Shown: positions 1,170 through 29,926 of the stretch, one piece after another | Position numbering within the stretch: position 1 is the first letter of the stretch | Layout: every line of letters starts with the position of its first letter | Assembly (NCBI GenBank): GCA_965113315.1 | Contig: OZ220364.1 | Direction: 5' to 3' (one strand) | DNA from: Podarcis vaucheri | Taxonomy: Eukaryota | DNA length: 64,000 nt | Made by a program: the position numbers and the translations under genes | Notes under the pieces: generated by a model | Told to the model about the DNA's origin: nothing | The model's database searches: none | What the model saw: the letters and a program-made list of their open reading frames with translations, nothing else

Positions 1170-2168
1170 GAGTCAGTCAAAAGCCAAATGGCTGCTTGGT
1201 AGCTAGGAAGGACTGGATGGGACTGAGCAAGCTGAAACTTAATCCAGACAAAGCTGAAATGCTGTTGGCGGAAGAACCATCTGCCATAGGTTTGCGTTTA
1301 CACTCTCGAAAGGGGTTCTGCTGCCTCTGAAAGATCAGGTTCATAGCTTGGGGGATACTCCTTGGCCTGGCGCTCTTGTTAGGCATGCCAGTAGTGCTAG
1401 TAGTAAGGGGTGCCTTTTCCAAGCTTTGGCCAGTTTGCTGTGACCTTTCCTGACAATGTCAGACCTTGCTAGAGTCATTCATGCCCTAGTGACCTGCAAT
1501 ACACTTTCCATAGGGCTGCCCTTTGGGAACTGCAACTAGTGAAAAATGCTGCAGGTGGGATGTTGACAGGTGTTAGGCATTGAGTCTATTGCACCAGTTT
1601 TCTGTGACCTGCATTGGCTGCTGAGATGTTTCTGCACTTATTTCAAGGTGCTGCTGTTAGTCTTCAAAGCCCTCTGTCACTTGGGACCTGTTTCACTGAA
1701 GGTCAGCCTTCTTCCTCCTGCTCCAAGCACTCCGCAGCTCAGAGTATCCCAAACTTGGGTCTCTGGCTGTTTTTGGACTACAACTTCCATCATCCATAGC
1801 TAGCAGGACCAGTGGTCAGGGATAATGGGAACTGTAGTCCAAAAACAGCTGGAGACCCAAGTTTGGGATACCCTGCCCCAGCTCTGCACCCCTCACAGCT
1901 ATGAGGCCTACTTGGTTAGGGCCTTTTCTGTCCTTTCCCCATCCTGTAGAAAGCCTTTGCCAAGTGAGCTCCACCTTTAGATGGCTGGTGAAGACGTGTT
2001 TGTTTAAAAAAGCCTTTGGTTGAATATTTCCTCCTTAGGGTACAGTATTTGGATCTTTCCGTTCAGATGGCTGTTTTGTAATTATTATTGGGTTTTGGGT
2101 TTTCTGCTCATGTTTTATTGTGAATTGCTTTATATTTTGTGACTGTTGTTTCTGATTGTTAGCCACCT
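1170..2168 (+). mobile_element. Degenerate L2-clade LINE 3' part
   Basis: WMGLSKLKLNPDKAEMLL motif typical of the L2 RT C-terminus, followed by LHWL and FKVLLLVFKAL motifs and a T-rich 3' end. Confidence 0.8.
1740..1875. mobile_element. hAT-type MITE nested in the L2
   Basis: Long TIRs cagagtatcccaaacttgggtctc / gagacccaagtttgggataccctg. 8-bp TSD ccgcagct/ccccagct (7 of 8 match). Confidence 0.85.
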
Positions 2169-2169
2169 T

Positions 2170-2484
2170 AGAATCATAGAATCATAGAGTTGGAAGAGAC
2201 CACAAGGGCCATCGAGTCCAACCCCCTGCCAAGCAGGAAACACCTTCAGAGCACTCCTGACATATGGTTGTCAAGCCTCTGCTTAAAGACCTCCAAAGAA
2301 GGAGACTCCACCACACTCCTTGGCAGCAAATTCCACTGTCGAACAGCTCTTACTGTCAGGAAGTTCTTCCTAATGTTTAGGTGGAATCTTCTTTCTTGTA
2401 GTTTGGATCCATTGCTCCGTGTCCGCTTCTCTGGAGCAGCAGAAAACAACCTTTCTCCCTCCTCTATGTGACATCCTTTTATAT
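2170..2484 (-). mobile_element. CR1 LINE 3' fragment (copy A)
   Basis: Minus-strand ORF2 end [25 protein letters not shown]...FLTVRAVRQWNLLPRSVVESPSLEVFKQRLD, plus (ATTCTATG)n tail. Confidence 0.95.
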
Positions 2485-2600
2485 GTCCACAGGTTCAATT
2501 TCCAGGTAAAGGGATCTCAGGTAGCAGGTGATGGAAAAGACCTTCCTCTAGCCAGCGGTCCCAGAGAGTCACTGCCAGTCAAAGCAGACTGTACTATAGG
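2485..2600 (+). mobile_element. 5'-truncated tRNA-derived SINE fragment
   Basis: gtccacaggttcaattt resembles the B-box segment gtcccaggttcaatccc of the fuller SINE at 49640, followed by gagagtcactgccagtc body. Confidence 0.55.
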
Positions 2601-2769
2601 AATTCCCTTGGAAAAGCACACAAGATGTCATTGTTTATGGTGATGAAGCTGTACATGTGACAGAAAGGCACAAATGACCTCACGTTCCTAGGGTGTGTAC
2701 AGCGAAACAACAACAGCCATAACCTACACATGCAGTTGAGACTCGGTATTAACGTTTTAGTATTAACGT

Positions 2770-3135
2770 TTTTGAATTATGGTGCTGGAGGAGACTCTTG
2801 AGAGTCCCATGGACTGCAAGAAGATCAAACCTATCCATTCTTAAGGAAATCAGCCCTGAGTGCTCACTGGAAGGACAGATCTTGAAGCTCCAATACTTTG
2901 GCCACCTCATGAGAAGAGAAGACTCCCTAGAAAAGACCCTGATGTTGGGAAAGATGGAGGGCACAAGGAGAAGCGGACGACAGAGGATGAGATGGTTGGA
3001 CAGTGTTCTCGAAGCTACCAGCATGAGTTTGATTAAACTGCTGGAGGCAGTGGAAGACAGAAGTGCCTGGCGTGCTCAAGTCCATGGGGTCACAAAGAGT
3101 CCGACACAACTAAACGACTAAACAACAACAACAAC
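2770..3135 (+). mobile_element. RTE/BovB LINE 3' fragment
   Basis: FELWCWRRLLRVPWTARRSN...LQYFGHLMRREDSLEKTLMLGK...RMRWLD, a (CAA)n tail, and TSD attaacgtttt. Confidence 0.95.
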
Positions 3136-3372: not shown

Positions 3373-5227
3373 TCTGTCTGAATACAACCCTTCCCTGGTC
3401 TCAGGAGGGTGTAAAGGGGTGGAGGGCATCTTCCCCATATTATACCCCAGGTAAAACTATTGAGCCAGTTGCTCTTACCCTTTAAGAAAGGAAGAAAACC
3501 CAAGGAAGGCTGTGCGGCAAGCAAGCTCATCCACTAAGCCCAAAGGCCACAGTTACCTGGGGACTGGGGAGCCATAGCTAATCCCCCCATTCTGGGAGCC
3601 TATTGATATGGAAAGCTTTGCCTGAAAGGAGGATGCTCCACAGATGAAGATCTGCCCAGGAAGAATAGCTGGGGAGGGAGGGGGGAGTAGTTGCTTTGGA
3701 ATGTGAGTTTGTTTGGATGCAACTTCACTTTAAGGGAGAGATTTAATCAGCAGTTTCAATAGCCCCTGTTCAGCATGGAAAACTGAGTTGGGAGGCTGCC
3801 ACTGCTGTTGATTAATTAGCTATCTTGTGATAGCTTTTCCATGACAAAACAGGGCAGGGGAGGGGCAGCTTGCCCCTGGCTCATTATATTAACCAGCCTT
3901 ACTGTTCCCTCTGTCCCCACCAGTGCTTCCATCTGCAGTTTGCCACCAAGAGACAATGGCTAATGGGCAAAGGCAGCAGCAGAGAGCATATTGGCAAGTT
4001 GCTCCAAAGGGTTTTCCTACAGCCAACCTGGAAGCTTCGGAGCTGCTGTTGGATAGATTATATATATCCCAAAACTGGGTGAATCCATCCAAGTTGTGCT
4101 TGCCAAGCAATGCAGTGCGAGTGTTGTAGGAAAAATGGGGGTGGGCTTTTACAGCCCAACTCCCCATCAAGGGACTCTGAGTCCCCCAGGTCCATGATTG
4201 GTCAGAGAAGAATGGATGGAGGCAGGATCCAGTGAAAGCAAAGCAGATTTTTATTTTTCTGTTGCAATAGAGTTCCCCCCTTCCTTGCAAGGAGGTGAGA
4301 AAACAAGAACAAAGTGTGCAGGAACCTTTAAAGGTTTTAGACATTGCCCAACCCTTTTGCCAAGAACCCTTTTGCCTAAAAGCATCATACATGCATCACA
4401 GAAAGAAGTGGTCAACCACAAAAAATTAAGAGTTAGGCTTCTCTCCAGCCTGCCAAGATATGTGATAATGATTGCATTACCTGGGCAGTCTGGCCATTGT
4501 TTTGAGATGATAAATACTTTAATTCTTGAATCCAAGTCACAGGCCCACCCTATTCATACACAAAATATGCTCTTAAGACAGGATTTGAATGAAAGAACTA
4601 TTGGGAAAGGTTGGGTGAAAGAACTATTGGGAAAGGTTTCTCCAAGGTATTTCCTTCTGTGGAAGAAATATTTAGAGTCAGTAGGAGAGCCAATATGTCT
4701 TTTTTGGGGATTGTTCTGTGTGCTAAAATAAAGTGTAATTTCTCTCAGGGTGTATTCCCTAAATTTTGACAGGTGAAGGATTGGTTTTCTGTGGAGTGTG
4801 TATCTGCTATATGTCTGCAACCTAAATTTTTATAACACAAGGAAGACATGGGGTGAGAAATAGGGATGGTTCATTGCTTAGCTGTTTGGGAAGAGCAATG
4901 AGGCAAATTCCTTCATGTGGATAACCGTCCCCACATTGTGATAACAAGCACAGACAATGTGGCTCCTCTGGAGGCTTCCTGGTGTGATAGAGCATCAGAG
5001 AAAGCCTCTGCTAGTGTTTTTCTTTTTCTTTTGAAACGATTGTGTGTGGTGGGGGAGGGCAGAGTCTGATAATTCACTGTCATCCCATTGTTTCCCTTTC
5101 CAAACATGCATCTGAATCCCAGATTATTAGCACCTGGCCATAGACCCCAAGTGTAGGATGGTTCTTACAGCTCAGCATCTGAGACCATCTTTCTGGCCCA
5201 CCGCGGAAAGTGGTTAGTTTGGTGAGT

Positions 5228-5442
5228 ACCATAGAATCCCAGAGTTGGAAGGGACCATAAGGGTCATCTAATGTAGGTATCTCTCTGGTCCACTGCTGAA
5301 AGTGGTTAGGTTGGTGAGTCTAGAGAATCATAGAATTGTAGAGTTGGAAGGGAACATGAGGGTCCTGAAATGCAGGAATCTTTTGTCCAACTTGGGGCTT
5401 GAACCCATGCCCTGAGTCTCATGCTTTACTGACTGAGCTATT
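5228..5442 (-). mobile_element. tRNA-Lys-derived SINE with a partly duplicated CR1-type tail
   Basis: Reverse complement head tagctcagtcagtaaagcatgagactcagggcatgggttcaagcccca. Two diverged catagaat...gagttggaaggga tail copies, each preceded by aaagtggttag.ttggtgagt. Confidence 0.7.
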
Positions 5443-6770: not shown

Positions 6771-7959
6771 TGATCCTTTAGATCAGGGGTGGGGTACCTG
6801 TGGCCCTCTGGATGATGTTGGACTCCAAATCCCATTAGCCCCAGCTAGCATGGCCAAATGGCAAGTGTTGCTGAGAGTCTTGATGTCGGTTAGAGGTATA
6901 TCTCACAACACCACTTTAAGAAAGAAGGCCCAAAGCTTGAAAGTAAAAACCACACTTTCTACTCCAGCTCAGCTAGACACAGTCGCTTATATTGTAGCTG
7001 TAATAATGGGGAAGCATTCTTCACATGCTCTGACACACAATGCTCTTGTGTGTTGAGCTCTGCACTAAAACAACTTCTATGCATCTTTTCTCCACCAGAA
7101 CTTACTCTCCCAGCCCTTCCTTGCCAAAGCCTAGAATTCCTGGTTGGGTTACAGAGGGTCTTGCAGAAAGAATCAGTTAGCTGTGTCCATGTGCAGCTGT
7201 CTGCGTACATATTAACCATTTGCTTCCCGGTAACTGCAGCTGCTTCCAAGTTCCCATAATGATTTTTGGCTTAACATGCGACAAGTCATCTCTGACACAT
7301 CCTCCCACTAAGCTAAGTGATGTAGTTAATTGGGTCCAAACTTTATGCAGCGTTCAGAGACATGCTGGCCTCCTGGCATCAAGCTGAGGAGCTTCTTTTC
7401 TGTGTTGCCTCTATCTCTCCATATGGATAACACTCATGTCTCTCACAAGCAGCAGATAACAGGTGTAACTCTGATCCTGGTTACCATCAGACCTAGAAAC
7501 TTTATGGAGTTGGTAGGTGGAATCTGGATATTACCAGCCCTCTTAAAGAAAAAGAATTGAATTTATCTCCCCTGCTTAATACAAATCATGCAGCCGTGAG
7601 TTCCACAGGTAGAACTCCATTCTGCCTACAAATGCAAGCTCTTGCTTTTTTGGCGGCCAGTTAAGAAACGCATTATTGAATGTACACCAGTGCACAATCC
7701 TTTTTTCTTTTTTTGCCTCTCCCCGCCCCAGCCCCGTCGGGTTCCATGGGGTTTTAATTATTTTCACACACATCCCCGCACAGCGTTTCTGTCTTCCGAG
7801 AGGACCCCCCCCCACCTCTCCACGACGCGCTCCTTGTGAGCAGGAGTTTAATGAGTGGTGTCTCCAGTTACCGCTGCCAGCAGAGAGGAAGCAAAGCCCC
7901 GGCAGAGAATGAACTCCGCTTAATCCCCTTTGCCGGAGCTTTGGGGGAGAGAATTTAGC

Positions 7960-8960
7960 TAATGTGAGTGTGAAAAGGCCCTGGCGCGGGCGGGGGAGGG
8001 CGCAGGGGGAGGGGAGGGGACAAGGGGCGGGGCGGGGCCCCTGCGACCCTCCCCCTCGGCCCTGGCTCTTTTCGCGGCCCATTGTTGGCTCCGAGCGGGC
8101 CGGCGGTGCGCGGCGCGGGGGTGTAACCCGAGAGCTTTCGCTACAAAGTCCCCGCGCCTGTTGCTGGAGCCGACAGAAGGCGCGAGGGCTGCAGGCGGAG
8201 AGAGCCGAGCGCGGCCGGGCTGATCGTTCCCACCAAGCCGGCGAAGAACCTTTGTGGAGCCAGCCGCGCTCGGCCGTCGGATTTATTCTTCGGCCACTTT
8301 CCGCGCGACTCGCCGGCACCGGGGAGCGAGCGAGGAAGGGAGGGAGTGGAGGAGCCTCGCTTGCCCAGCCGGCTTGCCCAGCGAGGGATGGAGCCCGGGC
8401 GGAGCGCGCCGCAGCACGGAGCCGCGGGACAGCGCTGAAGCGGCGGCGGCGGCAAGAGGTGAGGTGGGCTCCGTCTACGTTGACCGCTGCGGGGCTAGGA
8501 ATGGCCCCCGGGGAGAGAGATCCGGGTCTCTTGTCCGCCGCGACCCCGGAGGCTCCCCGGGGTGTGGCGGGGCGAAGGGCTGCTCTCCCCGCGCCCGGGG
8601 AGGCGGTGGACTTTGACCGGGAGGGTCTGTAAATCTGTTACCAAACTGTCCGGGCGCGCAGAGGTTCTTTTGTCGCTCGGATTAAAGATTAAGCTGCCCC
8701 CGGGAGCCTGTTCTCGGGCGCTGCTCTCTCCACTCGCACCACGTACGCTCCTTTCCCAGGGAACAGGCGCCCAGATATGCAGGCTGCGCGCAAGACACGA
8801 GTCCATAGGCGCGGCGCACTCACACCGTTCACACCGACACGCGCACCCTGGACGCGCCTGCCCATCCGCGCCAATCCACGGCCGCAAGCGCAGTTGGAAA
8901 TCTTGCGTTAATTGAACGGGGCTTGTGCTCCTAACCGTGCCCTCGAACCTCGTGGCTTTC
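7960..8960 (+). promoter_or_regulatory. CpG island / TATA-less FGFR4 promoter with GC boxes
   Basis: Abrupt CpG- and GC-rich ~1 kb segment. GGGCGG Sp1 boxes at ~7988 and 8025-8036. Lies 1-2 kb upstream of the ATG exon. Confidence 0.85.
8100..8458 (+). other. FGFR4: Putative non-coding exon 1 of FGFR4 (start approximate)
   Basis: Inside the CpG island and downstream of the GC boxes. Ends at donor AAGAG|gtgagg (GT 8459-8460). FGFRs characteristically have an untranslated first exon. Confidence 0.6.
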
Positions 8961-9988
8961 GGCGGCACTTTTAAATCGGCTTCTTAACTTTCCTTTGGAC
9001 TGTATGCTGTGTGCAGCTGGGGCTGGGCAGTGGAAGTGCCTTTACGCACGCACTCTCCGGCCGTGAGTTTAGTACCAATAAGCACCACGTGTTCAAACTT
9101 AAACTCGCTTTCGTCCTGCACGAGAATTACTTTCGCTGCCCCACTTTGTATTTCTTCTTCTCCTCCCCACCCCATGGTTTGTTCTGCTCCTTGGGTCATT
9201 ATCAAAGTGCATGAGAAGGTTGTACCATTGAGATTTGGGGGGAAGAAAGGAATAGGAGCAGGACAGCAAGTTGGGGTGGCAGGGTCATGCCAAAGGCCAA
9301 GAATCCTGATTTATTTATTTACATTTTTTATCCATGGGGGCTGTCTTTTCCAGGCAGGAACTATCTTAAGATAATCTGGTGGACTTTGGCCATGAAGAGC
9401 TGGCTAGGTGACACCCAGCCTCTGTGGTGCATCTCCCTGGGAGGCCACCTAATGCTCAAGATGAGGGTTGTAGAATTATAGTGCAATGCTGCAGGCAGTG
9501 TTCTATCCAGGAAATGAATTTGTTTCACATCAGCATCTCATGGGATGCTGCCTTTTACTAAGTCAGACCCATTGGTTCCTCTAGCTCAGTATTGACTGGC
9601 AGCATCTCTTCAGGGTTTCAGACAGAAATCTCTCCTAGCCCTACTTGGTGCCGCTGGGCTTTACCACTGAGGTACAATGGCTCACTCACGAGCAGGACTG
9701 GGCATCTTCTGGGATTGTTGCAATCAGATTCTTCTGTGCTGATTGGCAAATCAACTCCCTCCTTCCAAAGAAAATGTCCAGCAGCCTGGAATGGCTACAG
9801 ATGCTGCTGTCTTAATAACTGTACCTCTCCCCCAATGTATTATTGGGAGTTCTAGATGGTTGTGGACATAGGATACACCATCGTTCTGAATTGCAATGGA
9901 AAACTCGATGGCGTGACAACCCCTTTCCCTTCTCAATCTAGGCTTGGAGGATCCAAGTGGGAGCCGTGGGACAAGAAGAGACAACAGG

Positions 9989-16200: not shown

Positions 16201-16572
16201 CCAGGTTAGAGGATGGAGAATTCAGGCAGCCTTGAGCTCTGGCATTTGCCCTTTGGGTGCCCTTGGGGTGGCACAGTTGGTGGCTGGTTTTTCTTGTGCA
16301 CAGGACAACCAGAAGCCTGTGAGACCCAACTCATTCAACCATCTCCCAGAGGGTCACTCTCCTCATGCTCCAACACTTTCAAGCAAGCCTTCTGGTGGTC
16401 CAGCGAGGAAATGGGGGTTATATGTTGGTGTCTTCTAGCATCTGCCTGGGGTAAAGGGAGTCCCTACTTATCCCATATTCCAGAGCATTTGAGTTACGGG
16501 TGTTAAACACGCGCTGTTTCTAAAGTGAGCTCACACTGTCATTTGCACTGACCCTCTTCTTGCGTTGGACAG

Positions 16573-16839
16573 AGATGCTTGACAGCCACATGGTGGAGAC
16601 GGAGGAGGAGCACCTGCTACTGGACCCTGGGAGTCTGCTGAAGCTCTACTGCAGCACCAACCACAGCCTTGCGATCATATGGTATAAGGAAGCCAAGCAG
16701 CTTTTCCCAAGCGGGCGCATCCACATGCGGCAGAGCATGCTGGAGATTGTGGAAGCCACCTATGAAGATTCAGGCCTGTACTCCTGCCGAGCGCAGAGCA
16801 CCGGGGAAAGCCTGCGCAACTTCACCATCTCTGTTGTGG
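16573..16839 (+). CDS. FGFR4: FGFR4 exon 3 (Ig-like domain I)
   Basis: EMLDSH...LKLYC...WYKE...EDSGLYSC...RNFTISVV. cag acceptor, G|gtaaga donor, phase 1-1. Confidence 0.95.
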
Positions 16840-18246
16840 GTAAGAGATGTTCCAGCCTCTCTTCAGAACGGTGGCAACCCCTCCTTTTTTTTTGTTTGAG
16901 GGAAGGCCGCATGGCACATGTTTGCTCAGTAATGTTTCTGCTCCTCAGGGCAAACACTTCTCCTAGTCCAATGTGGAATGGAAAAATGAGAAGCGGTGTC
17001 ACTGGAAGAAGGTCTTAAGAGCTGAGGAAACAGCTCTATGACATTCTTGCCATGTCAGCCCCCCAGGGGGAGAAGAGGTCCCTTTTTAAGAGTAAGAAGG
17101 GGACGGAAATGTTAGGCACACCCAGAAACAACCCAAACAGCTAGCAAAGACTAGTGCATAAGAGAAGTAAGCAGCAAACAGAGGTGGGTTTTAAAAAATA
17201 AGATAAAAAGGGCAAAAAGTCTTAGGGGACCACTTGGAAACATTTCTGAGGCTTGACATGACCCACAACTCACAGGTCAGCCACCCTTGGTTCATAGTGA
17301 CTGGCAGTGGGTCTCCAGAGTCCTTCCTCACCTAACTTGGAGATGCCAGAGAACCAGGGACCGTTGGCATGCAAAGCATCTGCTCTGCTACAGCTCCTAG
17401 TCAACACAGACCTTGCCACACTGCCGCCTTGCATGTCCCCTGGTCAAAGCAACAAGGATTTATTTAACTTGGCGCTCCTCCTAAAGGACTTGGTTTTCAC
17501 AATGAAACTAGGCGGTTCCCTGGAACAGCTGGTAGATCTCAGATTACACCCCTTCTGTGAAGGTTGCGCGAGCTGCTTAATCACTTCCGGGCCTGTTCAA
17601 GGTTTTGTCTTCAACATGTAAAGCCCCAAATGACTTTGGTTTAAAAAAACAAAACAAAAACAAACCCCGATAGATTGCCTCCTCCTTTATACTCTGCCCT
17701 GGGATTTAAGATCAGCAGGAGAGGCCCCACTGGTGGTCTGCTGACACCCTCAGAGGTCCAGGGGACAGTGTCACATGAGAAGGCCTTTTTTGTGGTGGCC
17801 CCCAAACTTCAAAACTCTCTGCCTCCTGATGTATTCCTGATATCAACACTGGAGTTTTGTGCAGGCTTTTGGAAATGTGCAGTGTGATTACTTTCTGTAT
17901 ATGCTTTTATTGTTTGGTGGCTGCTTTAATTGATTGCATTTTACTGTTTCGTATTGCATTGTCCACCTGCCCAGGGACCTTTGGTGAAGGACAGGTAATT
18001 AAATGTACTAAATAAAGAATAAGCCAACAAATGAGCTAGGACTGTAGCAGCCAACAGTGCTTCTCCTCCTCTCCCCCCAGTCACCTTTGAACATACTCCA
18101 GTTAGCATTTTGCCTGCTACTCTACACTCCTGCTAAGAAAATGCTGGTCCACTGTAGCCAGGTGCTCCCTTGATAACTGCCTCTTGTTCAGTGCCCTGTG
18201 GTTATTTAAGAAGCAAGACCACAAAGAATTACCATTTTGTTTTCAG

Positions 18247-18336
18247 ATTCATTGGCATCTGGTGATGACGATGAAGACAGCGGTGTGGAGAGTGCCCACG
18301 CCGATTCCCTTGAGGAGCCCATACATACCCGGCGAG
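18247..18336 (+). CDS. FGFR4: FGFR4 exon 4 (acid box)
   Basis: DSLASGDDDEDSGVES... tttcag acceptor, G|gtcagt donor. Confidence 0.95.
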
Positions 18337-18764
18337 GTCAGTATGCCTACTTGGCTGTGCTTCACTCCGTCCTGGGTGCTGATGCATGCTGGGAGAGGGA
18401 ACTGGGTGGAGAAGGGGTGCTTAGTAAGTACTTGGACTCACGGTGGCCAGACATCTACCTTTCTTACTTCCCAAGCCTCCTCTGCTGTCGATGTGTCCCA
18501 AAATTGTTTGATAATGGTTGCCTTCAAACTAGGGAGCTCTGCTTGAGCTTGGAGCATATCCCAAAGCACACTCATTTCTCATGGGACGTTGAGGTTCCCC
18601 AGTGGAAGGGTTGCCGTCGTGCATTTTGGCACATCCATGGGTCCCTATGATGTTCCCTTTAACTCTCCCACCATCAGTTAGAGCACAGACCTTTGTCCCT
18701 AAAGTGTGAGCCTCCCCTGAGCCTGAATTAAAAGCTGGAGCCAATAGGGTGATGCCTTTTTCAG

Positions 18765-18931
18765 CACCTTACTGGACGCACCCTCACCGAATGGACAAGA
18801 AGCTGTATGCAGTCCCGGCAGGGAACACAGTCAAGTTCCGCTGCCCAGCCTCTGGGAGCCCCAACCCAACAATCCGCTGGCTGAAGAATGGGAGGGAATT
18901 CCGAGGGGAGCACCGGATTGGAGGGATCAGG
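18765..18931 (+). CDS. FGFR4: FGFR4 exon 5 (Ig-II, first half)
   Basis: [56 protein letters not shown]. Donor AGG|gtaagt. Confidence 0.98.
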
Positions 18932-19051
18932 GTAAGTGCCCAGCCCCTTACAGGTTTGCCATCTCTCCCCTTGCCCTCCTTTCCCTTTTCCTCCACCTGG
19001 CTGGGACCGCAGCTGCCTTGCCCACCAGGTTTTTATGAGTTAGGATTTGGG

Positions 19052-19085
<34 letters not shown>

Positions 19086-19479
19086 GGGGGGGGCACAGGG
19101 GAGCATGCTTTAAGGAATCCACAATATTGCACAAGCCACTCAGCAGTGAGTTTGGGGAATTCAGCCTGCTGTCCAAAGACTCCAGGACCCTCTTCAGCAC
19201 TTGCTGTGCCCCTGATCCCCTTTTGCTCTGGCTGCCCTAGCCTTGCCAGATCAATATATTAATTTGCAAAAGTTTGCTTCCATCAAAAGAGCAGCTGCTA
19301 GACATTTCCACCTCTTTTGCCCGCCTTTCTCCTCTTTCTGCTCCCTAGCTTGATTCAGTGCATTGTTAAAAAAGGTCAGCCTATGGACGTGCCCCATTCC
19401 TTAACAATGGAGCATGAACACATAATGCAAACACCATTGTTAAAATAGCTACACTGGCTACCCATTTGCTACTGAGCCA

Positions 19480-19780
19480 GGTTCAAGGTTGATTGGTATT
19501 AATCTACAAAGCCCTGAAGAACGTACGTCCAGTGCACCTTAGGGGCTGCTGAAACCCTTATATGTCAGCACAATCACTGAGATAACCTACAGGAGTTTTG
19601 TTAGTTGTTCCTTGCACTGGCAAGGCTCATTTGACACCAACATGAAATACAGCCTTTAGTGTCATCAGCCCAGGCCTGTGGAGTGTTCTGCCAATAGATT
19701 CAGCAGGCAGCTTCTGCCTCAGCCTTTAAACACCTGTGGGAAACTTCTATTCTGCCATGATTATACAGGCAATTCAGAAT
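19480..19780 (+). mobile_element. Old L2 fragment in intron 5
   Basis: ccaggttcaaggtt...aatctacaaagccctga (FKV...IYKAL) and gcctttagtgtc...ctgtgg motifs, similar to the L2 at 1170-2168. Confidence 0.55.
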
Positions 19781-19781
19781 A

Positions 19782-20005
19782 CAGTCGTACCTTAGAAGTC
19801 AAACGGAATCAGTTCCAAAAGTCCGTTTGACTTCCAAAATGTCCAGAAACCAAAGCGCAGCTTCTGATTGGCTGCAGGAAGTTCCTGCAGCCAATCAGAA
19901 GCCCTGTCAGACATTTGGGTTCCAAAGAACGTTCACAAACCGGAACACTCATTTGGGAGCCAAAACATCCAAGTACCAAGGCATTCAGAATCCAAGGTAT
20001 GACTA
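19782..20005. mobile_element. Tc1/mariner (Tigger-like) MITE
   Basis: TIRs cagtcgtacctt / aaggtatgacta flanked by TA. Internal palindrome ctgattggctgcaggaa..ttcctgcagccaatcag. Confidence 0.85.
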
Positions 20006-20219
20006 TACATCTTTTCACAACAGTTAGCTGATGGTCTCTGTTTTTTAAATTGTTACATGTTTTTTAATATATAGATACTAAACAGCTTTGATATGTGATA
20101 CACCAGTATATAAATATTTTTGTAAATGAAGAAATATTTGCCGGCCTTAGTATATAGCTCAAAGGATTTGTGTCTAAAACAAGGGACTTTTGTTGGCCTG
20201 TGAGCAGCTGTGCCCTGAG

Positions 20220-20309
20220 CTTAGCTGTCAACTTTTCCCTTTTCTTGCGAGGAATCCTATACGGAATAAGGGAATTTCCCTTTAAAAAAGGGAAACGTTG
20301 ACAGCTATG
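20220..20309. mobile_element. 90-bp hAT-type MITE, 75 nt upstream of exon 6
   Basis: TIRs cttagctgtcaac / gttgacagctatg. Perfect 8-bp TSD GCCCTGAG. Confidence 0.88.
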
Positions 20310-20384
20310 GCCCTGAGAGAGATGGACATCTCTTTTAAAAGAAGGCGATAACCTTGGCTCCTGCCTTTTCCTCTTTCCACCCAG

Positions 20385-20508
20385 CTAAGGCATCAACACT
20401 GGAGCTTGGTCATGGAGAGTGTGGTGCCTTCGGACCGAGGCAACTACACTTGCCTGGTGGAGAACAAGTTTGGCAGCATCCGCTACAGCTACTTCCTGGA
20501 TGTGCTAG
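20385..20508 (+). CDS. FGFR4: FGFR4 exon 6 (Ig-II, second half)
   Basis: [41 protein letters not shown], read directly from sequence (absent from the ORF track). ccag acceptor, G|gtgagg donor. Confidence 0.98.
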
Positions 20509-21304
20509 GTGAGGTGAACTTCTCCCTGCCATACTGCTCCAAATCTAGATATGTGGACATCAACATGTGAAAAAAAGACAAGGAAAGTGGGCTGCCCCCC
20601 CCACTCCCCCACCTCCAGCCTGAAAAGCTCCTTACTCCTTTGCCGATGAGTGCTTTTGAGTCTGTGTGGGATGCCAGACCCCAGTTCCCTGGCAGCCTGC
20701 CAGGTTCCTGTGGGAAGGAACAAGCCTCGCCACCCTGACCTCAGGCACCCCCAAAGAGAAGGAAAATGCCCCGAACCCGCTTTTGACTTCAAAGGGAGTT
20801 GGAGATCTCCCAGGCCATAAAGTCAGATGAAATTAATTAGCCCTGCCTAGATCTATAGGACTAGCTCTAAGCCTTTTGCTCCCTTATCTCTCAGCCCCTC
20901 ATTATCTGTCTTCTCTGGGCTTACTTGTAATCACCGGAAAGAGGCTCTGGAGCCAGTCATGGGTGGGAGTTCAGCCCATGGCATTAAGTAATATCAGATC
21001 TGCTGGGCTGGAAGGAGATGGCGGGCAGTGGGGGGTGGGGGGGGAGAGAGACACCAGGCCTTTAGGCAGGACTGCATATACTGCTGTACTAGGGAGCTTT
21101 GAGAAGAAAGTGCTGCGCTTTGATAGATGGAGTAACTCCCTGACAGTTGGCTGCGCCTCTGCACTCCCGGACGGCTGCGATAGCACTATCAGCTCCGTGT
21201 GCAGTGATTTATGTGCTGTAGAGCATGACCTTAGCTCCTCTGGGGGGGACCTGGCAGTCTTCAACTGTGCTGGACAACAACTTTCCCTGCTCTCTTCCTG
21301 GCAG

Positions 21305-21495
21305 AGAGATCTCCGCACAGGCCTATCTTGCAAGCTGGGCTGCCGGCCAACACCACCGCAGTGGTGGGCAGCGACGTTGAGTTCTTCTGCAAGGTGTACA
21401 GCGACGCCCAGCCCCACATACAGTGGCTCAAGCACATTGAAGTGAATGGCAGCAGCTACGGCCCAGATGGAGTCCCCTATGTGCAAGTGCTTAAG
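21305..21495 (+). CDS. FGFR4: FGFR4 exon 7 (linker and Ig-IIIa)
   Basis: [64 protein letters not shown]. Donor AAG|gtaacc. Confidence 0.98.
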
Positions 21496-21883
21496 GTAAC
21501 CAGAGCTCCCCCTTTTTTTGCAGAGATTTCCATTGCCAGAAAGGTCACTTTCCCCCACACTTTTAGACAAACAACAGAGGTTACGGAGTGGGGGGAGCAG
21601 GGGCTGGATAGGAAGTGGCACATTTCAGTGGGCTAGATTTAGACCAGGGGCTCCTAGTTGCTGACCCCTCATCTGTGGAGCCAAGGGCACATATAGCCCA
21701 TTACCCATATTAAGAATTGCACATTTTACAATATGTGCCTAAACTAACAGTTTCAAACCAAAAGTTTATCTTAAAAGAAGGCTTTAACAAGAGTGATTGC
21801 TGTGTTTATTTGCAAAGAAAGAGAGGAGGTCCAAGACTGGCTGAGATGCTACTTTCAATAGCGCCAACTCTGTAAGCTTGGAG

Positions 21884-22080
21884 CATAGCTTTCCAAACCT
21901 TTCATGCTAGTGACACACTTTTTAGACATGCATCATTATGTGACAAAGTAATTCAGTTTTACTAACAAACCAGAAGTTAAACTAACCCCTTTCCAGCCCC
22001 AGAAGGAGCATGGGGAGTGTTAGCACATCACACCTACACACTGCAGTCGAGTGTCATGACACACAGTTTGGAAAGCTGTG
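21884..22080. mobile_element. hAT-type MITE in intron 7
   Basis: TIRs catagctttccaaac / gtttggaaagctgtg. TSD gcttggag/gcttagag. Confidence 0.85.
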
Positions 22081-22462
22081 GCTTAGAGTATATGTCCAGA
22101 AAACAAGCAAACGCAAAGAGCTGCATCATCAGTCTAGCACTGTCCCAGTTGGGTTGCTTATTCTCACAGCAGAGTTGTTGTGTCTCAAGCCCAGAGGCTT
22201 CATACATGATTTTCTGTAGAAGAGTTGCTTGGAAGTAATAAAACTTAGCAATGGCTGTGGTGCACTTATTTAGGGCATCCTCATCAGAGATTGGGGTACA
22301 TGACCATCAATCAGCCATTTATAAGATAAAGATGCACCCTTGAAAGATATATTGGCAGCAAGCAAGATGTTCCCCTTCCAATAAGAAGCTTGAATAACCT
22401 TTTTGTGTCAACGAGAACTAATGCTTTTCTCCCGGCCTCCCACTGGCGACTTATTTTGGCAG

Positions 22463-22601
22463 ACGGCAGATATTAACAGCTCGGAGGTGGAAGTGCTGTA
22501 CCTGCGCAATGTCTCCATGGAAGATGCTGGGGAATATACCTGCCTAGCAGGGAATTCCATTGGCCTGTCATACCAGTCAGCTTGGCTCACTGTGCTTCCA
22601 G
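22463..22601 (+). CDS. FGFR4: FGFR4 exon 8 (Ig-IIIc)
   Basis: [46 protein letters not shown]. Donor G|gtgaga. Confidence 0.98.
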
Positions 22602-23767
22602 GTGAGAAAGGACGGTGGATGAGTGGATGGGGGAAAAGATGGATAATGGTAGTAGGGTATTCCTTTGCAGAGCTAGAAGCAGAGATTACCTTTCCTAATA
22701 GAGACGCTGGGGGTGGGGTGGGACTATACTGTGCATGTCGTACCCCTGTAGAATATCCAATGAGATGAATATGGTAAAGAGAGAGACAGACAGACAGATA
22801 AATGGCTGAAAACAAATTGCAAGACACACTGCCTCGCTTGCATTAAGTTGCCAATCAATCAGTCAACATGACAGATCTATTCACTGTAGAATTATACAGA
22901 ACAATCTACTGTTGTCTTTTGTCAATATATCAATCACAATATGACAGCTGCAGTCCATCAAAAGAGATGCTGCACTTCTCAGTGTATAAATCCTGGAAAG
23001 ACAGACTGGATTTTGGACCCACTTTGTACAAGGAAGAATCCAGCCACTTTTAAATCCCTTGATTTGAATGGAGAATTAGGACAGGCAGGTGAAAAATCAG
23101 ACAGGGCCCTTGCAGCTTGAATAGTTGTGTAGAGCAACACTCCTGCATAGCTATTAAGGATGCAGGTAATATAAATGGGTGGAGACTAGGTGGTTTTTTA
23201 ATATCCACAAATTAGACATAATCCACTGATTAAAAACAAAAAGGCCTACGTACATCTTAAGGGGTGGGGTGGGGAATTGGTAATGAAATGAATTCTGCCT
23301 AGGCTTTGAATGGATAGATTTTGAAAACAGCACATTGTACTGTATATGTAATTAAATGTGGAAGAGATACTGCATGAAATTCCAGGAGCTAGGAAATTTC
23401 TGTTTAGCAAAAACTCTAGGTTTTCACTGAAAGGCATCTGCCTTAAAATGGCTATGTGATGGCTCAATGATAGCTCAAGGATGGGAGCATGATCTAGCCA
23501 GAGTTATCTTTTTACGCCCCATTTATGACAGTCAAAGTGATCTAAACATACGGTATGTTAGGCTCTCTCATTGAAATCAGTGGGATGTATTTTGTTTATG
23601 GTACTGATAGGCTCTGCAGCCAGGTACAGACAGGCTGTTTTTGCAGGCCAATGTACACACCGTGCAGCACAGCCATGTTCCCTCCAGCCCAGCTGGCTAC
23701 CTGCTGTGGTCAAAGCAGGTTTAACCCCCCTGAAACATGCTAACTGCAGATTTATTTGCTATTGCAG

Positions 23768-23961
23768 AAGAAGAAGAAGTGCAAGAGGCAAATGCCCCTG
23801 AAATCAAGTATACCGATATAATTATCTACACTTCGGGATCTTTGGCCATCGCAATGGCTATTGTCATTGTTGTCTTGTGCCGGATGCAGACCCAGCCGAG
23901 CAAGCAGCCCTTGGAGCCCATGGCCGTACACAAACTCTCCAAATTCCCGCTCATTCGGCAG
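23768..23961 (+). CDS. FGFR4: FGFR4 exon 9 (transmembrane helix and juxtamembrane)
   Basis: EEEEVQEANAPEIKYTDIIIYTSGSLAIAMAIVIVVLCRMQ...VHKLSKFPLIRQ. Donor CAG|gtaggt. Confidence 0.97.
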
Positions 23962-24403
23962 GTAGGTACCGAGAGACCCAGAACTAACCTTAAAGTGGGT
24001 CAGAAGGATCCATTGTACCACTGCAGTGGTTTTCAAGGGCCCACAATGTTGTCTGCCTGCTTGGACCAAGAATCAGCAATGGATAAAGTGAGATACTCAG
24101 ATCCTCAGAGTACAACAAATTATTCAGGGTAGTAAAATCCCAGTCGGACCATGCAGATCTCTGAAAACAGCTCTCCCATGTTCAGCTAAATTCACCCTTC
24201 CCTGTTCACTGTCAGGGCAGCATCTGGTTGGCTAGATGGACCTTGTTCGCATTGTTGATGGCTCTTATTGGTGTTAGGTGTGTGTGTTCTGCCCTGTCCC
24301 TTGTTTCACTGTGTCCTTTGTGCCCTTGTCCAGTCCGTTCTTGCGCTGGAGTAAAGCAGTGTCTATGGGGCAATCTGCTTGAATGTTGGGTCTGTCTCCA
24401 CAG

Positions 24404-24713
24404 AATCATAGAATCATAGAGTTGGAAGAGACCACAAGGGCCATCGAGTCCAACCCCCTGCCAAGCGCATCAGAGCACTCCTGACATATGGTTGTCAAGC
24501 CTCTGCTTAAAGACCTCCAAAGTAGGAGACTCCACCACACTCCTTGGCAGGCAGCAAATTCCACTGTCCAACAGCTCTTACTGTCAGGAAGTTCTTCCTA
24601 ATGTTTAGGTGGAATCTTCTTTCTTGTAGTTTGGATCCATTGCTCCGTGTCCGCTTCTCTGGAGCAGCAGAAAACAACCTTTCTCCCTCCTCTATGTGAC
24701 ATCCTTTTATATG
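24404..24713 (-). mobile_element. CR1 LINE 3' fragment (copy B) inserted at the exon-10 splice acceptor
   Basis: Same CR1 ORF2 end and tail as 2170-2484. Flanked by direct repeat TCCACAG (24397-24403 and 24714-24720). Confidence 0.95.
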
Positions 24714-24720
24714 TCCACAG

Positions 24721-24866
24721 TTCTCCTTGGAATCCAGCTCCTCGGGGAAGTCCACCACATCCCTGATGCGTGTCACCCGCCTCTCCTCAAGCTGCACACC
24801 CATGCTGGCCGGGGTCATGGAAGTGGAGCTGCCTCTGGACTCCAAGTGGGAATTCCCACGAGACAG
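24721..24866 (+). CDS. FGFR4: FGFR4 exon 10 (juxtamembrane)
   Basis: [48 protein letters not shown]. Acceptor gtccacag abuts a CR1 insertion. Donor AG|gtaagt. Confidence 0.97.
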
Positions 24867-26076
24867 GTAAGTCTTGTGAGGTGCAACGTAGCTTCCTTCT
24901 GCATGTGCCGCTGAGGATGCTGGCCAGGCTCTCGCATGACTCACACAAGCCCAGTGTCAGAATGGCAAAGCTTCGCCTGCTCACCAAACTTGTATCAAGA
25001 TGTGTGTTTGTTAACACAAAGGGCTAGTTCCCACATGTGGTCCAGCTGCCAGATTGTCAGTGTCCTTAGACCCATGCTTGCCTGTGTTCACGCAGAGGAA
25101 GCAGCTGGTAAGCTGGAAGTTCACGTGTGCCTGGCTGCACAGGACTCTTGTTCCCACCAGCACAGTGGCTCCAAAAATGGCATCACAGCCATCACATACC
25201 ACCTGGTACGCATGTGCTTCAGTTTCACATGTTATTTCCCCCTCACAAGCGAGGGCAAGCACAGCAAGTAGAGTGGCCAAGTACCACAAAGAGGGAAGGC
25301 AGTAGAGTGCATGAGAGTACCGCTTTCTTCAAAGAACAAAACTGGAGAGGAGTCCATTGTAACCCTGCTTAGCTCTGTGACTAAGGGGCTAGCTATAAAA
25401 ATTGTCCGGTATCAAAAGCCGTGCAGTTTGTCTCTTGAATTGCTGCCTGTAGAACAAAGGTGGGGAACCTCAAACTGAGGGGCCAGGTGTGTGTGTACGT
25501 CAGCTATTATACAATGGCAAAATTTACATCCATTGCCTCACTCACTTTTGCACACACATAATTTGATTGTATGCTGCCTTTCCATAGTTCAAACCATGCT
25601 CAAGGCGGCTTACAACACGGAACAAAATACATAACTACAACACAACAAAAGTAGTCATAAACAATAAATTAAACAATAAAAAACTCAAAACCAAACTGAA
25701 CAATTTCCACATAAAACACAACAAAATCTAAAATAAAATACAAAAAACTAATGGCAACAACCATCCTCCCAAACAATACTCCAGGCCAAGAGTCTGTTCA
25801 GCAGCCTGAGCTTTTGTAGCTGGAGTCAGTCCGGGCCCCACCTTCCCAGGTCAGGTGGAAAGGGCAGACAGAGCAGGGAGCAGGTCTTCCAGAACTCAAG
25901 ACAAGATGGACTGTCTCTGGCATATGGCCCTCAGAAGAATGCCTAGAAGGGAATGCTGCCCTTGTGCTGGAAAAGGTTTCCCACTCCAGCTGCTACAGTC
26001 TCTTGGAAATGAACTTGTTAGTGAATTCTTGGAAATGAAAGGAATTTGTTAGTCAATGCACTGTATAGACATTGAT

Positions 26077-26336
26077 GAGCCAGTGTGGTGTAGTGGTTAA
26101 GAGCGGTAGTCACGTAATCTGGGTAACCGGGTTCGCGTCTCGGCTCCTCCACATGCAGCTGCTGGGTGACCTTGGGCCAGTCACACTTCTTTGAAGTCTC
26201 TCAGCCCCACTCACCTCACAGAGTGTTTGTTGTGGGGGAGGAAGGGAAAGGAGAATGTTAGCCGCTTTGAGACTCCTGAAGGGGAGTGAAAGGCGGGATA
26301 TCAAATCCAAACTCTTCTTCTTCTTCTTCTTCTTCT
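26077..26336 (+). mobile_element. Squam3-like (MIR/CORE-related) SINE with (CTT)n tail
   Basis: tRNA-like head gagccagtgtggtgtagtggttaagagc...gggttcg, CORE-like gctgggtgaccttgggccagtcac, (CTT)n tail, possible TSD tgatga. Confidence 0.85.
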
Positions 26337-26617
26337 GATGAACGCCCACCAATGATGCTTGTACGTATCGCCTCACCTCCCAACTTGGGATAGTTCATGC
26401 ATGGGCCTGGGAGAGAACATTGGGTCAGATTTCTATGTTGAGGTTGAGGCCCTGCAGATGCACCTGGTGCTAACCTCTGATTCTGCCCCACTGCAGGGGA
26501 CCTGCCAGCTTTCGGATACAGCCCTGAGTTTAGGTCCCACCCACCCAAATGCATCTGTACCCATGACGACATGAGGTTGTCCTTTTAAGGAGGCTTTGTA
26601 CCCTTCTTTTTCCCCAG

Positions 26618-26739
26618 GCTTGTGCTGGGCAAGCCACTGGGTGAGGGCTGCTTTGGGCAAGTGGTGAGAGCAGAAGCCTACGGCATTGATCAAGAACGGC
26701 CAGAGCGACCCATCACTGTGGCTGTCAAGATGCTCAAAG
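26618..26739 (+). CDS. FGFR4: FGFR4 exon 11 (kinase Gly-rich loop, VAVK)
   Basis: [40 protein letters not shown]. Confidence 0.98.
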
Positions 26740-26861
26740 GTAACCACAATATACAGGGCTAAGAGAGCCTGAATTGTGGAAGGACTTCAGTCCTTCCACT
26801 GTTGGATTCTAGTTTAGATCATGGGACACCCCAGTCTGACCTCCTTCTGTTGCCTTGCCAG

Positions 26862-26972
26862 ATAATGCCACTGACAAAGACTTGGCTGACCTCATCTCAG
26901 AAATGGAAATGATGAAACTGATGGACCAACACAAGAATATAATCAACCTGTTAGGAGTCTGTACGCAGGATG
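26862..26972 (+). CDS. FGFR4: FGFR4 exon 12 (alphaC helix)
   Basis: [37 protein letters not shown]. Confidence 0.98.
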
Positions 26973-27200
26973 GTAAGTGACTGCCTCTTTGGGCTGGGAA
27001 GCAGAGGGTACCAGGTGCTGTGAGGAAAGAGGCAGGGATGTTTGGGAGGTCAGGAGAGACCAGAAACTTCGTGGGGCCATTAGGAAGATGCTGCAACTGA
27101 ACAATGGAGCTCTGATGTTCCAGGATAGGAGCAGACATTGTACGGGATTTATGAAGACTGCACCTGAGAGCACAGGCTCACATATAACTCCTGACTGCAG

Positions 27201-27391
27201 GGCCTCTCTATGTGATTGTGGAGTTTGCTGCCAAGGGGAACTTGCGGGAGTACCTGCGCGCCCGTCGCCCTCCCACGCCAGACTACACCTTTGATATCAC
27301 CAAGATGCCTGAGGAGCAGCTGTCCTTCAAAGACTTGGTCTCCTGTGTCTACCAGGTGGCACGTGGCATGGAGTACCTGGAGTCCAAGCGG
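27201..27391 (+). CDS. FGFR4: FGFR4 exon 13 (hinge and kinase insert)
   Basis: [64 protein letters not shown]. Confidence 0.98.
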
Positions 27392-27811
27392 GTAAGAGCA
27401 GCCTGGCCCAAATGGCTTTGCCCCCTCACCAACCCTAGCAGGATCCTTACTTAAGCAGAAATGACTGGTGGCCAATGGGCAAGTGTCATCTGAAGCGTTG
27501 GCAGGTTCTGTTGGAGTGCCAACAGTGAAGGCTCTAAGCCAAGCATTGGCACGCTAAAGCTTTTGCTGGGCTCTTGACTAGCCCGCGAGGGCAGCTACAT
27601 GAGGGTTAGGTCTACCAAAGGAGAGGGGCCGTATGTACCAGGCCTGGGCAGCCATCATGTGATGAAGGAGTGAATGGCAAGGCAGAGAGGCAGCGAAGCT
27701 ACTCCTGACTCTCATGGTAGATGCAGCAACAACCCACTAGCCCAGATGTGTCTTCCATTGGACTGCAGTCTGGGCTGCAGTGGGCTCTCCGGATCCTCAA
27801 GAGAGGATTCA

Positions 27812-27813
<2 letters not shown>

Positions 27814-27862
<49 letters not shown>
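27814..27862 (+). repeat. (TC)~24 microsatellite forming the exon-14 polypyrimidine tract
   Basis: Uninterrupted TC repeat running directly into gcag|TGC. Confidence 0.95.
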
Positions 27863-27865
<3 letters not shown>

Positions 27866-27866
27866 G

Positions 27867-27989
27867 TGCATTCACCGGGACCTGGCTGCTCGCAACGTCC
27901 TTGTCACCGAAGAAAACGTCATGAAAATTGCAGATTTTGGCTTGGCCCGGGGAGTTCATGACATTGACTACTACAAGAAAACCAGCAAT
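27867..27989 (+). CDS. FGFR4: FGFR4 exon 14 (HRD, DFG, activation loop)
   Basis: [41 protein letters not shown]. Confidence 0.99.
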
Positions 27990-28448
27990 GTGAGTGAGAT
28001 GGTATTTGAGAGGCACGGGAGGGGAAGACTCAGAATTGTCAACAGGCTTTGGAAATACGCAATGCAGTTGGGGGAAAAAGGAGCGTGGGCACTGGGGGAG
28101 AGCAATTACTGTGCTCTGTATTTCTTAACAATAAATGGTTAACAATGCATGGAAGGCAACTTGGGAGGGTAGCTACCCTGACAGATGGCATATCAACCTT
28201 TTAAATAATAATGTAGTATAAAGTAGTAGAGAAACCTTCATAGCCCTTTGTGTGTGCATACACACGTTCCTGCATTACCCTGTTGGTAAAGAGAGATAAT
28301 TTTATTACTGTTTACTTTCAAGGAATCCAGGGTCTTGTAGGAAACTAGGATGAGCACATCTATGGGGGTGGATATGTGGCTATTGCTCAGTGGATGCTAG
28401 AGGGTAGAACTCAAAAGAGGAGACATTGCCCAGGGAAAGTGTCAATGA

Positions 28449-28550
<102 letters not shown>

Positions 28551-28695
28551 TAAGTTTGACTCTGCAAGGCTCTCACAATCACATCAGCCTACACAGCTAT
28601 ATCTGGCAGAGCAGCTGAGCTACTGTGTTTTTAAAAGGGAGAAGTTGCCTTATACTAAAGCAGAGCATTGATCCATCTTGCTCAGTACTGCCTAC

Positions 28696-28832
28696 CAGTG
28701 TTGCTCTAACTTGGGTCCCTGACTGTTGTTGGACCACAAGTCCCATCATCCCTAATTAGCAGGAGCATTAGTCAGGGATGATGGAGGTTGTACTCTTAAC
28801 AATATCTGGAGACCCACATTTGAGAAACACTG
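28696..28832. mobile_element. hAT MITE (family of 1740-1875) nested in an antisense SINE
   Basis: Ends cagtgttgctctaacttgggtcc / gagacccacatttgagaaacactg. Internal cccatcatccct...cagggatgatgg. Confidence 0.75.
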
Positions 28833-29229
28833 ACATACACTAGCTCTCTGGGGTCTTTCCTACTTTTATTTAAAGATGCAAAGAATTGAACTTGGGGTGT
28901 TTTGCATGCAAGCTACAGCCCTTTCCCAACCATCCTGGCTGTATGGAGAATAAATGGGCCTATTTGTCAGTCCTACTAGATGAACCATAAGTGGCATGGA
29001 AAAGCCAGGATGCAATGTCCCTTCCTGCCTGCATAAAGATGACAAGAAGCATAGAGTTGCTTGCTCCCTGTAAAGTGGTCCACCTTTGTAACTGGTCTCC
29101 AGCATATGTAACTTCAATACATTCCACCTCTGTGGTCACAAATCCATCTTTGTGAGATTTTGCTGAAGTAGTGCACATTCCACGGGGGCAAGGTCCACCT
29201 TCTGATGCTTGGTGGTAGTGTAGGGCTAA

Positions 29230-29445
<216 letters not shown>

Positions 29446-29533
29446 TAAGTGTGTGTGCCTCTTAACCACAGCACCTGCATCCATATTATGGGATGCTCTA
29501 GCCTGAGATGTCCCCTCCCCTTTCCCCAAACAG

Positions 29534-29639
29534 GTACATGATGATGCGCGAGTGCTGGCACGCTGTGCCTTCCCAGCGGCCCACCTTCAAGCAGCTGGTA
29601 GAGGGACTGGATAAGGTCTTGGTTGCTGTCTCTGAAGAG
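29534..29639 (+). CDS. FGFR4: FGFR4 exon 17
   Basis: [35 protein letters not shown], preceded by an 89-nt intron. Confidence 0.98.
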
Positions 29640-29779
29640 GTAGGTTCAGACCACCAGGAAGAGGCATGAACGCAGCTGTTTCAGAAACCCTTTTAAGTTC
29701 CCTGAAGCAGAAGTAGAGGGAGCCAAGCCTTTGTCCCTTGTGAATGCTGACTGGGTGTCCTTTCTCTCTTTCCCTTCAG

Positions 29780-29926
29780 TATCTGGACCTGTCAATGCCC
29801 TTTGAACAGTATTCTCCATCCTGCGAGGACACGACCAGCACCTGCTCCTCTGACGACTCTGTCTTCACCCATGACCCTCTGCCCATCACCCCCTGCCTCT
29901 TCCCCTACCACAATGTGCGGACATGA
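29780..29926 (+). CDS. FGFR4: FGFR4 exon 18 coding part (C-tail with YLDL PLC-gamma docking motif, stop TGA)
   Basis: [48 protein letters not shown]. Confidence 0.97.

Follow-up and report, generated by a model that had tools for sequence, protein, structure and literature searches.

How did two 5'-truncated copies of a retrotransposon that lie 22 kb apart come to share both their truncation point and the bases just beyond it? This question is raised by a 64,000-nucleotide stretch of DNA from the lizard Podarcis vaucheri (the window). Self-BLAST of the window aligned copy A (2170-2492) with copy B (24402-24720) on the plus strand at 95.1% identity over 327 columns, with 4 mismatches, 2 gaps and an E value of 8e-148; this pair was the best of 49 self-hits, the runner-up reaching 77.6%. 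As a first-pass annotation of this DNA had described, the two copies have the same orientation, both begin with two AGAATCAT units and both end in ...TATATGTCCACAG. Beyond these ends we found 0 further identical bases on either side, and the 500-bp flanks of A and B showed no likeness above that of shuffled sequences in any of the four pairings. Segmental duplication was therefore rejected as the origin of the pair.

Copy A (2170-2484, minus strand) contains the last 78 codons of ORF2, with the reading frame open, the 3' UTR and a ATGATTCT-type tail (2170-2185). Copy B (24404-24712, minus strand) is the same CR1 fragment with a net 8-bp deletion, a 4-bp duplication that shifts the frame, and two substitutions. 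When the C-terminus of ORF2 was compared with known proteins, 16 of the 49 longer matches were Podarcis sequences at 96-100% identity, while matches from Anolis reached 71-78%; A differs by 0-2 residues from the 11 CR1 relatives that match over its full length. The tail of this young CR1 consists, in A and B, of two 8-nt tandem units. A terminal hairpin of the same form is predicted in both copies, a weak signal with z-scores (-0.05 and -1.55) that are not significant. Judged by these protein matches, A and B are 3' fragments of a young, Podarcis-type CR1. Separately, a scan of prokaryote genomes, in which 289 stretches fitted the pattern and 3 were relatives (L001-L003), turned up CR1-like ORF2 ends (56-61%) on low-coverage short contigs of Streptomyces and Nocardia assemblies; these are likely vertebrate contamination.

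On the CR1-sense strand, both copies read CGHIKGCH across the junction, and the first-pass annotation had taken the 8-mer behind this reading to be foreign to CR1. Our comparisons agree. At the position of the H in GHIKG, 15 of the 16 Podarcis relatives carry Y, preceded by FK (12), YK (2) or FI (1), and HIKG occurred in 0 of 85 CR1 protein matches; because of these two observations, GTCCACAG is, by its translation, not CR1 family sequence. The leader was also absent among the 36 matches of a search with a shorter protein (best match, 86%). The G of GTCCACAG could be either an added base or a substitution beside the junction. A Podarcis muralis gene model for GGCT (P0002) enters CR1 ORF2 at IKGCH, the same codon as in A and B, with a different residue upstream; a truncation hot spot or a gene-model artefact are both possible explanations of that junction.

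The origin of the 8-mer becomes apparent at copy B, which lies in FGFR4. This gene occupies the plus strand of the window: its first Ig-domain exon is 86% identical to gecko FGFR4, and the gecko protein maps onto the window as 16 blocks (16569-29923). Upstream, a CpG island (7751-9250, no strand assigned; CpG o/e 0.8-1.0, GC 0.55-0.72) is, from its composition, the likely FGFR4 promoter. The juxtamembrane exon (24721-24866, plus strand), which begins FSLESSSS, is 98% identical to residues 422-474 of gecko FGFR4, and we take it to be exon 10 by human numbering. The heptamer TCCACAG is present on both sides of B. The left copy (24397-24403, plus strand) is the original FGFR4 acceptor, and its AG overlaps the CR1 tail as the AG of B's first tail unit; the right copy (24714-24720), together with a G at 24713, makes up the acceptor that now abuts the exon (24713-24720, plus strand). 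Since the base before the left TCCACAG is C, the G at 24713 is extra and lies outside the target-site duplication (TSD), which is 7 bp long. The earlier view of B's 8-mer as both splice acceptor and TSD thus stands in both respects, but its full length does not: the TSD has only 7 bp, and the G is not part of it. Read from this anatomy, B is an ordinary target-primed CR1 insertion, antisense, in the acceptor of FGFR4 exon 10. In the related element ZfL2-2, the data on which we draw describe TSDs, 3' microhomology and extra 5' bases as all common (PMC2666801).

The right TSD adjoins the codons for FSLESSSS, which in gecko FGFR4 come straight after PLIRQ, and it is therefore the frame-preserving acceptor. 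From the antisense CR1 it receives a pyrimidine-rich run and 50 nt without an AG. The two candidate acceptors, the AGs at 24403 and 24720, are 317 nt apart, and splicing to the old AG would lengthen the message by 317 nt, with a stop after 26 codons. We scored both with a crude model built from 15 other FGFR4 acceptors, which does not discriminate which AG is used: the new AG scored 5.8 bits, the old AG 4.3 bits now and 2.9 bits before the insertion, the other acceptors ranged from -0.2 to 15.6 bits, and at least 5 of the 56 AGs in the same intron outscored both candidates (6.9-10.5 bits). A branch-point scan gave one unlabelled match, near 24697, on which nothing here rests. We also observed that the antisense strand of the family-like unit (2172-2468) has no stop for 99 codons in the frame that would continue FGFR4 exon 9, and that B's deletion leaves 26.

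Copy A lies about 5 kb upstream of the putative FGFR4 promoter. Between A and B lie the CpG island (7751-9250) and the FGFR4 coding blocks as far as the transmembrane exon, in line with the first-pass statement that the direct repeats bracket the promoter through exon 9. A had also been said to lack a TSD, and indeed the comparison of its flanks found no direct repeat above 4 bp (best flank match, 4 bp), with only AG present at both ends. On the right, the GTCCACAG of A (2485-2492, plus strand) equals B's extra G plus B's TSD, and is at the same time a 7/8 gapped match to the SINE sequence expected there. It leads into the remnant of an old tRNA-type SINE (2493-2588, plus strand), 5'-truncated as had been proposed, from which about 44 nt of the head are missing: a profile of the in-window copies matched 2485-2588 and enters at model position 45 (positions 45-133, E 0.003). 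We take this remnant to be Squam3-like. The SINE family Squam3 is described as abundant in Podarcis (PMC7983390). An intact SINE at 49640-49845 (plus strand), our reference for the right junction, carries GTCCCAGGTTCAA at 49684, which the 8-mer matches at 7 of 8 bases with one gap.

How readily could B's junction have found this exit? On the intact SINE, the 8-mer scored 5.5 just before GTTCAAT, the top position in that copy (next best, 4.0); this score was reached by 0.16% of 20,000 random 8-mers and by 73 of the 4,718 AG-ending 8-mers of the window. In a looser test, 8% of random 11-mers equalled the fit of B's junction at some position of the SINE head, so that exits of this kind come easily. 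In the SINE beside A (2493-2510), some 8-10 nt that other copies have seem by eye to be missing just after GTTCAAT, a gap that aligners placed differently. Just right of this SINE lies an open frame (2753-3118) that resembles an RTE/Bov-B C-terminus.

On the left, A abuts an old LINE-type 3' tail (2090-2169, plus strand), putatively of L2, which ends right after AGCCACCTT; all four similar tails that we aligned, hand-picked out of 11 motif matches in the window, run on for about 40-55 nt past the motif. A's left edge is the very end of the CR1 tail, and the only bases shared there are AG (2 bp). A resemblance of CCAC at this junction to B's TSD was considered and rejected, as nothing beyond AG remained once the alignment was anchored. 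An ORF left of A matched no family in an atlas search (top score, 0.88). Both neighbors, the LINE tail and the SINE, appear cut at A's edges, which suggests that about 85 bp or more of target DNA was lost at A, although truncated SINEs are common: 4 of the 10 other SINE matches in the window start at model position 45 or later.

Other repeats of the window were recorded in passing. A unit of about 93 bp stands twice in tandem at 5187-5381, the two copies being 78% alike, and each contains an old CR1 tail end. Two pairs of direct matches (75-76%) link 61686-61913 and 63073-63552, about 1.4-1.6 kb apart, and are possibly an old local duplication. An open frame of about 177 codons on the minus strand (58078-58608) has a coiled-coil look and gives the impression, perhaps, of a LINE ORF1.

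Which copy gave its junction to the other, a direction that the first-pass annotation had left open? TCCACAG stands on both sides of B and on one side of A, where it is accompanied by B's extra G. This arrangement identifies B as the donor of A's junction. For A to be the donor, the SINE would have to mutate into the 7-mer of the FGFR4 acceptor at precisely that spot (p ~6e-5 by composition). The first-pass annotation had argued that a shared breakpoint plus flank speaks against independent origins, and this argument gains from the numbers: by base composition the 8-mer alone has a chance probability of ~1.3e-5, the same breakpoint not yet being required, and G plus the 7-mer is absent from the CR1 relatives. 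Its further claim, that one copy was templated from the other in cis, is borne out for the junction, which B donated; it does not extend to the copying of A as a whole, in that A's left edge lies at the tail and shares only AG. A was thus probably copied at least in part from B, and would be the trace of DNA repair or of a botched insertion.

The differences between the copies bear on how much of A came from B. The first-pass annotation had listed a short deletion, a 4-bp duplication and a few substitutions; the kinds are right, and we could refine the list to five events, confined to A 2235-2341 and so to the 172 bp on the tail side. They leave exact blocks of 65, 53, 27, 19 and 151 bp, such that A and B show no difference over the last 151 bp on the junction side. 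B carries the derived state at four of the five: the deletion (absent, as in A, from two Podarcis gene models that read through this UTR), the frameshifting 4-bp duplication, R to G (R in 13 of 13 relatives) and S to T (S in 11 of 13 relatives, T in none). The fifth, at 2245, is derived in A, which has E where both read-through models have D. At four of the five, therefore, A has the family state. This 4:1 split lacks significance (p 0.375), and the clustering of the differences is weak (p 0.04-0.08; 0.26-0.40 when corrected for the largest gap). B's four derived changes, two indels and two transversions, are packed into about 105 bp (24466-24569), an odd spectrum for a young copy.

We detected no derived change common to A and B in the CR1 body, and A lacks all four changes derived in B; therefore, A and B are not demonstrable sisters inside the body of the element. 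This pattern would fit either early copying or copying of the junction side only. The identity of the last 151 bp is uninformative in this respect, because B matches the family there at the protein level. NGSKL was considered as a change derived jointly in A and B and rejected, because all 16 Podarcis rows have it as the family state.

Taken together, these data make local DNA templating, as a class of process, the likely origin of A's junction. Within this class we favor a hybrid origin of A, to which we assign a probability of about 50%: a CR1 end at A would have used its homology to invade B, been extended through B's junction and then been rejoined by microhomology. First, as the anatomy of B shows, a young CR1 entered the FGFR4 exon-10 acceptor in antisense orientation by target-primed reverse transcription and produced B with its 7-bp TSD and one extra base. 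Second, a CR1 tail would have become attached at A by its own priming, either as new cDNA or as an earlier complete copy that was later broken. Third, the CR1 end at A would have invaded the closest DNA almost identical to it, namely B, which lies 22 kb off and has the same orientation, and been extended over B's truncation point and TSD. Fourth, and here the junction sequence lends support, the new strand would have left B and joined A's right end at the imperfect microhomology GTCC(A)CAG in the SINE; the stretch of target that had separated the old LINE tail from the SINE would have been lost, and B would have stayed intact. A's tail end would then be its own and its junction B's. The switch may have taken place either during insertion or in later repair.

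We favor this hybrid origin because A's left edge fits priming by reverse transcriptase, whereas its right edge carries B's junction together with a microhomology exit. The left junction fits such priming better than microhomology repair because the edge is the exact tail end and only AG is shared; for ZfL2-2 in zebrafish, about 80% of 3' junctions are given as having microhomology in the data cited (PMC2666801). The CR1 end at A also offers long homology, which would explain the choice of B as template; the SINE end alone has 10 better-matching SINE hits in the window. Only 2 of the 8 CR1-end matches in the window, which has only 2 kb left of A, are members of the young family, so B is the nearest homologue seen. 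Also counted in favor of the hybrid are the two neighbors that end at A's edges, the tail-side placing of all five differences and A's agreement with the family at four of them. Nor is a second CR1 within 22 kb unlikely, since the figures quoted for P. raffonei (CR1 copies above 500 bp, all ages) are about 24,000 truncated and 1,700 full-length copies (PMC11303007). Against the hybrid origin, no switch point is demonstrable inside the element; the equal tail length of A and B would come for free with copying of the whole unit; the templated inserts described for L1 in the cited work come mostly from within 15 bp, not 22 kb; and the deletion at A is only suggested by its neighbors, given how many SINE hits start at position 45 or later. 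The weights given to this and to the other readings are our own judgment.

The alternative that survives best is the repair of a break at A with a copy of the entire B unit (the element and one of its TSDs), soon after B arose, by an MMBIR/FoSTeS-type or end-joining-type templated insertion or from an excised circle. We regard this as unlikely, though well worth keeping in mind. A's insert corresponds to B's unit between its two AGs (321 bp), the equal tail length and the microhomology on the right fit, the 4:1 split of mutations is compatible with equal ages (p 0.375), and template switching to nearby microhomology is established in the work cited (PMC4888836). However, a switch by microhomology only would not be steered to B, as 10 other SINE hits in the window have longer homology; moreover, the tract must end exactly at the tail end on 2 bp, and none of B's left flank was copied.

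It is distinctly improbable that an antisense read-through transcript of B was mobilized in trans by the reverse transcriptase of CR1, so that the daughter copy carries an 8-nt 5' transduction and target-site sequence was lost. Such an RNA accounts for the exact start at the tail, for the equal tail length, for the similar predicted terminal hairpins (whose z-scores are not significant) and for the upstream flank of B, 7 bp plus G, at A's 5' end. It would have to land at random 22 kb from its source, with a probability of ~3e-5 for a genome that we assume to be ~1.5 Gb, and its truncation would have to fall 8 nt beyond B's end; we also know of no antisense promoter for a transcript through B, which we count against it. 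In the related clade, the cited data cut both ways: microhomology at the 5' end and truncation of the target are usual (short truncations in 5 of 25), but long target deletions were absent from wild-type cells, where 24 of 25 alterations were short and the other was a long TSD (PMC2666801).

Still less probable, in our judgment, is an FGFR4 RNA template. Here, while a CR1 was inserting at A, the DNA end on the far side would have primed on nascent pre-mRNA or on the 3' end of the excised intron, been extended by reverse transcriptase and annealed to the tail-side cDNA. One local co-insertion of precursor mRNA is reported for L1 (PMC10191854), and A lies only ~5 kb from the likely promoter. What keeps this reading alive is that A's copied stretch ends exactly at the terminal AG, the 3' splice site, of the FGFR4 intron; but the CAG microhomology alone also predicts an end at AG, the SINE match continues into the exon (TTC), which an excised intron does not offer, and FGFR4 would have to be transcribed in the germline. 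An assembly or polishing artefact, in which B's end was joined to a real CR1 at A, is given the same low standing. Nearby repeats are a known source of misjoins, and the 151 bp without a single difference that lead up to the common junction would fit; on the other side, the window contains no N, the copies have five differences including two indels, and A rejoins the SINE at its best-matching position.

We give hardly any credence to the reverse direction, in which A is the original, B is the templated copy and B's apparent TSD derives from A's SINE flank: A is nearer the family (1 versus 4 derived changes), B's two indels and two transversions in ~105 bp resemble error-prone synthesis, and the G of the 8-mer fits the SINE, but a 1-nt insertion in the SINE would have to recreate the acceptor 7-mer (p ~6e-5), followed by a staggered break and a tract that stops exactly at the tail. 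Equally remote is an independent origin of the two copies, either as insertions of a short, non-autonomous CR1 whose leader is CTGTGGAC or at a hot spot of truncation. One of the 16 Podarcis proteins (P0002) does enter CR1 at this codon and has another residue upstream, but the leader is B's own target site, 5 bases beyond AG (p ~1e-3), and HIKG is found in 0 of 85 proteins, among which short copies would rarely be annotated.

The hybrid origin has counterparts in known systems. L1 cDNA can pair with nearby homologous DNA in an SDSA-like manner, and most of the 22 templated insertions described with it drew on sequence less than about 15 bp away (bioRxiv 2024.08.27.596794); three locally templated insertions (PMC11702581) and one clone with a local precursor-mRNA co-insertion (PMC10191854) are also described. 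Like the SDSA-like chimeric L1 elements (bioRxiv 2024.08.27.596794, PMC11702581), A combines a LINE tail at one end with a genomic template at the 5' end and leaves the donor intact. Those chimeras come from tumors or cell lines and A is a CR1 in the lizard germline; their template lies within ~15 bp, whereas A's is 22 kb off and is the junction of another copy. A carries donor-specific sequence, the donor is intact and the flanks have not been exchanged. A thus works like an SDSA-type chimeric LINE, and proof of membership would take a switch point or the prior allele.

TE gene conversion and one-sided invasion resemble the A/B pair in involving direct-orientation neighbors within tens of kb and a non-reciprocal transfer (PMC9675761); direct-orientation TE rearrangements in that source span 93 bp to 25 kb. 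Unlike these, A and B leave the 22 kb between them undeleted and unduplicated, with no demonstrable switch point. With MMBIR/FoSTeS (PMC4888836), A has in common a nearby template, imperfect microhomology and a probable deletion, but only one of its junctions exceeds 2 bp (the right, 7/8 gapped), and the left, at 2 bp, sits at a retrotransposon tail. The L1 co-insertion of precursor mRNA (PMC10191854) likewise used sequence from the gene beside the insertion site; in A, an RNA template is not demonstrated and the copied piece is itself CR1. Among squamate CR1 inserts, given as 97% truncated (PMC11303007), B is typical except for its position in a splice acceptor, whereas A differs in bearing another copy's junction. 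In the passages compared from a study of LINE-RNA chimeras, there was no close match to A (bioRxiv 2025.02.02.635956), and our literature search, incomplete for subscription journals, returned no report of the A/B locus or of twins sharing an insertion junction. We conclude that A and B are a new example of known LINE-chimera or templated-repair processes, a single and probably ordinary scar.

As a mutational scar, A implies no function. B is a tolerated insertion within a splice acceptor. Recombination between A and B, for which they offer a substrate of 151 bp perfect identity and 95% over 320 bp, would delete 22,232 bp, including the CpG island and all FGFR4 exons up to the transmembrane exon; we mention this only as a possibility. 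If the FGFR4 RNA-template reading were true, it would be a germline, fixed case of RNA-templated copying of an antisense element from a neighboring gene, and it predicts a class of local twins with ends at splice acceptors. More generally, A and B are a rare case in which a TSD reveals which of two TE copies served as the template. Twins that share a junction break the assumption that LINE junctions are unique, which matters for insertion-marker phylogenies and for the dating of TEs. If such twins prove common in Podarcis, counting them would give a rate of local templated repair in a reptile germline and a means of telling DNA from RNA templates.
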